64,000 bases of DNA from Eledone cirrhosa (Eukaryota), in the NCBI GenBank assembly GCA_964016885.1, contig OZ024763.1, forward strand, positions 5,208,001 to 5,272,000, written 5' to 3'. Of the stretch, positions 28,600-29,106 are shown piece by piece (position 1 is the first letter of the stretch; each line of letters opens with the position of its first letter). Below the pieces are notes generated by a model. The model ran no database searches, was not told where the DNA came from, and was given only the letters and a program-made list of their open reading frames with translations. The translations under genes were made by a program, and so were the position numbers.

Positions 28600-29106
28600 A
28601 TGCCTATTGTCCAAAGGAAGTTGGACGTAAGCCTGCGGAATTGACATGGACTGGGCAAAATCTTGCTCACCTCATGATAAACAACATGTTCCCTTGTGAT
28701 GGTTACGTCACTAAATGGGCTTATTATGTAGCTGTCCCCACCAAAGAGTTCGCTGCCTCCATATGGCGTCCAGTTGATGAGTTTAAATTCTATCTGTTAA
28801 ACAAGCAACTGATGCCAGCCACAAAGGTTGGGTTCCACGAATTTACACTACCGACACCAGTGCGTGTTGAGAAGGGAGATTTTATCGGCCTCCACTATCC
28901 AAGATCAGCTAAACAGGGAGCAATTGGTGGCTCAACGAGTGGTCGTAGTGACACACCCGCTGCTGAACTGTATGAAGTCTATTCTGGACAACTTTTTGAT
29001 GAATTGATGACAACCAACGTTGCGTTTGATATGAAGTGGCTCGGCTTCCAAAAAGGCCAAAAAACTTTTGCTATACAAGCTATCATGGATTATACTGGCA
29101 TTGATG
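28600..29106 (+). CDS. HSPG2: Perlecan-like gene, 507-nt symmetric exon encoding an uncharacterised beta-sandwich-like (DUF4082-like) domain
   Basis: Acceptor tttacttccag with cttaac branch-like motif. 169 open codons: (D)AYCPKEVGRKPAELTWTGQNLAHLMINNMFPCDGYVTKWAYY...PTPVRVEKGDFIGLHYP...AIQAIMDYTGID. Phase 1-1, weak donor atg|gtacag. The only long complex ORF in the window. Confidence 0.8.

Follow-up and report, generated by a model that had tools for sequence, protein, structure and literature searches.

The module exon and its perlecan gene

The window is a stretch of 64,000 nucleotides from the genome of Eledone cirrhosa (GCA_964016885.1, contig OZ024763.1, positions 5,208,001 to 5,272,000 of the forward strand). 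It holds the 5′ part of a gene for the basement-membrane proteoglycan perlecan, all of it on the plus strand. Between the exons for the SEA domain and the first LDLa repeat lies an additional exon at 28600..29106, of 169 codons, whose product is predicted to be a jelly-roll beta-sandwich. This module is real, spliced, conserved in molluscs and a nemertean, and confidently modelled. The exon is 507 nt long, made of 168 whole codons and one split codon with no stops, and is bounded by an acceptor AG at 28598-28599 and a donor GT at 29107-29108. It is in phase 1 at its start and at its end, as are the LDLa exons downstream. It encodes exactly two cysteines (codons at 28608 and 28695), and its GC content is 0.446 versus 0.31 in both flanking introns. 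The 11 exons from 14067 to 62369 have AG/GT at every end, and when joined they give 594 codons with no stops. The first-pass annotation had described a symmetric phase 1-1 exon with two cysteines, in frame between SEA and the first LDLa repeat, and that is what is found.

Both predicted junctions, 18637|28600 and 29106|37330, occur within one X1 contig (2418 nt, depth 54.7). The contig aligns to 28588-29107, and of its loose ends one matches 18596-18625 in the SEA exon and the other the first bases of LDLa repeat 1, whose exon begins at 37330. In its 12-nt overhang there are three mismatches, which are exactly the positions where 28588-28599 differs from 18626-18637. The contig also aligns to 18489-18634, at adjoining record positions. 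Because the loose ends, the overhang mismatches and the adjoining record positions all fit the SEA and LDLa 1 exons, both junctions are placed in this one contig. The basis is an assembled contig from one run without recorded type, not junction reads; the other three of the four runs gave unspliced DNA. Taken with the perlecan domain order described below, this bears out the earlier claim of an extra domain between the SEA and LDLa parts of perlecan. The splicing evidence being a single contig of one run of unrecorded type, one could still take the exon for an artefact, for one that is seldom used, or for a piece of a different gene lying inside the intron. However, that contig holds both junctions, it is the sole X1 contig on the SEA exon, with no skipping form seen (contigs drop rare variants), and the same parts are joined in annotated gene models of seven other species. 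We consider this explanation already largely refuted and very improbable.

The identity of the gene as perlecan is shown by its domain order. As given in the available part of PMC6266596, that order is Ser-Gly sites, SEA, LDLa, Ig, laminin B/LE, an Ig array and LamG/EGF. The domain I exon (14067..14202), recognized from its translation and AG/GT ends, encodes an acidic stretch and then two Ser-Gly pairs, likely glycosaminoglycan attachment sites. SEA follows in two exons. The first (17729..17894), half the domain, matches Pfam SEA at E 2.1e-4 with 21.8 bits, under the 26.4 cut-off; the second (18489..18637) has no Pfam match alone and ends in the phase-1 donor joined to 28600. The SEA of orthologue P0015 is above the cut-off at 37.2 bits, so the Ser-Gly sites are followed by SEA as at the perlecan N-terminus. 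LDLa repeat 1 (37330..37461; Pfam Ldl_recept_a, E 8.6e-15) is spliced to the module. Repeats 2 to 7, recognized from translation and AG/GT ends, lie at 38666..38776, 44820..44933, 47790..47906, 59653..59775, 61238..61351 and 62256..62369, and repeat 8 (63891..64000, start approximate) is truncated where the window ends. Window positions 1-14066 yielded no convincing signal-peptide exon; coding probably begins in an exon upstream of the window.

The gene extends about 190 kb past the window end. Downstream on the same strand come, in order, six more LDLa repeats, Ig exons, three LDLa repeats, LE and laminin B, an Ig array and LamG/EGF exons, mapped in 20 stretches within contig positions 5272001-5471000. 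Pfam ranked the expected family best or second for the nine downstream exon frames sampled, some below cut-off, and laminin B is above cut-off at two places (contig positions 5347339 and 5366500). The X1 contig spans the 5′ part of the gene only; in Ylistrum, the complete 4494-aa model has the module and all five domains. Eledone shares the order from Ser-Gly sites to LamG/EGF with human and Trichoplax perlecan, as far as the available texts go, but adds the 169-residue module between SEA and LDLa, which the descriptions of those two in the available texts do not include. LDLa repeats number eight in the window, six more before the first Ig exon and three later, against four in human perlecan as described in the same partial sources. 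In the available part of PMC4398486, Trichoplax perlecan is SEA followed by a domain II built like the human one, SEA is missing from fly and nematode perlecan, and the names Lottia and Crassostrea do not occur.

Several other features of the gene were observed. Acidic Ser-Gly pairs before SEA are common to the window gene (14067-14202), Sepia, Elysia and Mactra. In molluscs, domain I of perlecan appears to be of the vertebrate kind, which the available part of PMC4398486 treats as a later refinement. The domain I exon has a second donor-like GTAAGT at 14184, use of which would alter the phase. The cuttlefish models P0002 and P0004 differ by an LDLa repeat that matches 47790-47906, possibly an alternative exon. 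Two very homogeneous tandem arrays lie in introns, 15158-16528 (133 bp x 10.3) and 23482-24910 (89 bp x 16.1), both with 99% matches, and are probably recent expansions. Finally, a stretch of at least 511 bp with an Ig half-exon in it occurs twice about 3 kb apart (L007:9490-10000 and L008:2387-2901; 499/511 identical), as either a recent duplication or an assembly artefact.

The module in other animals and its descent

Judged from protein matches, the position of the module between SEA and LDLa is shared by other molluscs and one nemertean. In cuttlefish models (source name Acanthosepion pharaonis) the order is SEA, module, LDLa. The module is identical to the cuttlefish copy at 118 of 165 positions (72%), above the 24/52 and 26/49 of the two SEA exons and at the top of the range of the LDLa repeats (18/37 to 27/37). 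A sequence search of 1.84 billion representatives gave 167 matches at E <= 0.001, 61 of them at E <= 1e-10; the best 150 of the 167 were listed. LDLa follows the module in seven of the 43 long matches scanned, and SEA precedes it in four. Named perlecan carriers besides Ylistrum are Mactra, Bulinus (two models), Elysia, Candidula and the nemertean Tubulanus. The first-pass annotation had suggested a lineage-specific domain; this is true only of molluscs and a nemertean taken together, and not of this species by itself. None of the 21 matches looked up by name is a vertebrate, arthropod or cnidarian perlecan; the other matches are unnamed, and the result therefore does not establish that those groups lack it. 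Nor is there, by name, an annelid perlecan with the module among the matches looked up. A metagenome scan found 29 loci, with LDLa-like exons in the flanks of 11. Among the 25 full-length copies (four partial ones excluded), the best acceptor and the best donor are each in phase 1 in 23, as scored with a rough self-made matrix, and these 25 form only five groups at 70% identity.

Two of the perlecan carriers have peculiarities of their own. Bulinus has two neighbouring, non-identical gene models that both contain the module (P0018, P0022, P0158), with no SEA match in P0022; these are either a duplicated 5′ end or alternative starts. The perlecan-like N-terminus of Mactra P0087 has fibronectin type III among its LDLa repeats, a further lineage-specific insertion.

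The domain composition of the matches shows that the module has been re-used in unrelated mosaic proteins. In Owenia, it occurs with kringle and AbfB (three copies), with SUEL and CUB, and with VWA. It occurs with F5/8 and ShK in Tubulanus, with PAN in Lineus and with HYR in the brittle star Amphiura, as well as in sushi and astacin proteins without a species name, and ITI-HC is among its domain partners. Profile scoring of 163 proteins found two to four copies of the module in 28. A class 1-1 mobile extracellular module is defined by its symmetric phase 1-1 exon and by its occurrence in multidomain proteins that are otherwise unrelated. Both features are found here, the exon phase in the window and in the metagenome copies. 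The Atlas also returned unnamed eukaryote clusters at 0.96-0.97, Annelida and Porifera being the commonest on very few records. With the search matches, these clusters support the kinship to unnamed invertebrate modules that had been proposed from the sequence. Within the Eledone genome (3.0 Gb), three protein queries for paralogues found only exon 28600-29106, and the DUF4082 profile matched nowhere, with its controls silent too; both results are lower bounds.

We think it quite likely that the module was inserted into perlecan a single time, long ago. It would have arrived as a symmetric phase 1-1 exon before the mollusc and nemertean lineages parted. We argue this because position and phase are shared, and not from the tree. 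In an IQ-TREE tree of 26 rows, eight perlecan copies fall in an unresolved 14-row group alongside six non-perlecan copies; one perlecan clade is not rejected (p-AU 0.499) and is not shown by the tree. FastTree, run on 155 of 183 domain copies with short or low-scoring copies excluded, placed the two cephalopod perlecan copies outside a 51-row branch (SH 94) holding the other eight.

Relatives are also found in bacteria. They include a LamG protein of Ca. Entotheonella with three copies of the module (E 1.1e-15) and a PEP-CTERM protein of the planctomycete Bythopirellula; the animal and bacterial-type profiles align with 98% probability over 126 columns. A prokaryote genome scan gave at least one locus, from 56 pattern matches. 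It is conceivable, though we think improbable, that a lectin of bacterial origin was acquired by early animals, equipped with a disulfide and with introns in phase 1-1, and moved into perlecan by shuffling. The relatives in Ca. Entotheonella and a planctomycete fit such a history, but the tree is unrooted and gives no direction of transfer. If it were true, molluscs and their kin would have a basement membrane that binds glycans, whether microbial or those of its own chains, by means of a domain missing in vertebrate and fly perlecan. As a separate observation, Ca. Entotheonella, the source of the protein with LamG and three module copies (P0044 / P0161), is a sponge symbiont, and the Atlas contains sponge clusters of the module. 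Host-symbiont transfer is worth a look.

Predicted fold and family

The module is predicted to fold as an antiparallel beta-sandwich of the jelly-roll kind, which supports the beta-sandwich proposed by eye in the first-pass annotation. The model superposes on carbohydrate-binding module (CBM), F-lectin and discoidin domains, and we take its class to be the galactose-binding-like jelly-roll fold. Cys3 and Cys32 would form one disulfide. We are highly confident of the anatomy and the fold together. A model made from five sequences reached a predicted local distance difference test score of 34.2 and was not used. A homotrimer prediction, prompted by phage-fibre and TNF-like rows, scored 0.00 in a run in which the alignment was not used, and is no evidence either way.

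The same annotation had seen a resemblance to DUF4082 (PF13313). What stands of this is a faint link: 9 of 113 family members match weakly at E <= 0.1, the best at E 1.2e-5 over profile positions 24-132 of 143. For the exon alone there is no match to DUF4082, and that best member reaches 25.8 bits, below the gathering cut-off of 28.4. The bit scores come from a rescan of 104 of the 113 members, which showed 8 of the nine matches, and the Atlas score of 0.87 for DUF4082 is a lead only. Unlike DUF4082, the animal copies of the module have a Cys pair. The module is best placed in an unnamed family that probably has a distant relationship to DUF4082. None of the 113 members matches Lectin_like (PF18560) or PHR (PF08005) in Pfam at E <= 0.1. 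NCBIfam has nothing for the exon, and a sequence search of the PDB gave no match for the exon and two chance matches for the family profile (E > 1). A word-index search with the 113-row alignment scored none of 7565 candidates, which says little, being limited to proteins of 717-2045 residues. No paper was found to describe the module by title or abstract start, subscription papers being outside the scope.

Among the structural neighbours, Cwp84's lectin-like domain (PF18560; PDB 4ci7, 4d59) is 9-12% identical to the module and has no Pfam match to it. The CBM-like domain found in FjoAcXE-type esterases (PDB 7tog, 7toh, 7toj, 7tok) is 7-11% identical, and its binding site is built jointly with an esterase domain. 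Domains of phage capsids, tail tips and baseplates (9jwb_Z, 9d93_Pa, 8zdp_v, 9euf_0) are likewise 7-11% identical; no phage sequence matches the module better than E 0.5, and no PHROG family is matched by more than one of the 113 members. The PHR domain has a much lower Z than the lectin-like, CBM-like and phage group and no Pfam match; PHR domains are intracellular.

Possible function and its meaning

We tentatively read the module as a non-catalytic glycan-binding module, giving this slightly less than an even chance. It is self-contained and extracellular, lies just behind the Ser-Gly/SEA region, and would use its loops to tether perlecan's N-terminus to glycans of the matrix or the cell surface. 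The first-pass annotation had also suggested ligand or glycan binding, an idea still drawn from the fold and the accompanying domains. We favour this by analogy because the lectin-like and CBM-like neighbours rank above the PHR and discoidin domains, because loop residues of the AcXE domain, Arg and Asn, bind a uronic acid (PMC9105624, available part), and because the family co-occurs with lectin domains and sits on bacterial surface proteins. Several points weigh against it. The best structural matches are phage structural chains, two common polar residues are replaced in the cephalopods, and the module has no conserved basic excess. According to the available part of PMC4089489, Cwp84 lacks the usual sugar site, and sugar binding is not shown even for that protein. 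The conservation of the module is ambiguous as to a binding pocket.

The same domain with the same history might instead bind a protein, such as a matrix partner, a receptor or a growth factor, as other members of the fold class do. We hold this possible but rather doubtful: the lectin-like and CBM-like group scores well above PHR and discoidin domains, and the family has members among bacterial surface proteins, for which one would not expect a partner protein from an animal. The module could also have no ligand of its own and act as a structural spacer or folding partner, packing on SEA or LDLa 1 and setting the distance of the glycosaminoglycan chains from the remainder of the core protein. 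The linkers are short, with the first Cys of the module a few residues past the end of the SEA exon and the next Cys after the module 9-13 residues on in all seven proteins; conserved positions are for the most part hydrophobic, Gly, Pro or Cys; and the look-alike domain in Cwp84 and AcXE packs tightly on its neighbour, according to the available parts of the two papers. A spacer is nevertheless unlikely, since the module has many other neighbours and tandem copies elsewhere and is conserved better than the adjoining SEA.

Perlecan is a textbook case of conserved domain order, and an extra folded domain in cephalopods, bivalves, gastropods and a nemertean alters that picture for a large group of animals. 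The surprise is moderate, in that invertebrate perlecans already vary in domain I and in repeat numbers, and the module is already present, unlabelled, in public gene models. The module could mark relationships among these phyla. Beyond perlecan, an extracellular family without a Pfam name is now outlined; it is spread over mosaic proteins of many kinds in invertebrates and occurs in some bacteria, and its confident model can serve for binding tests.
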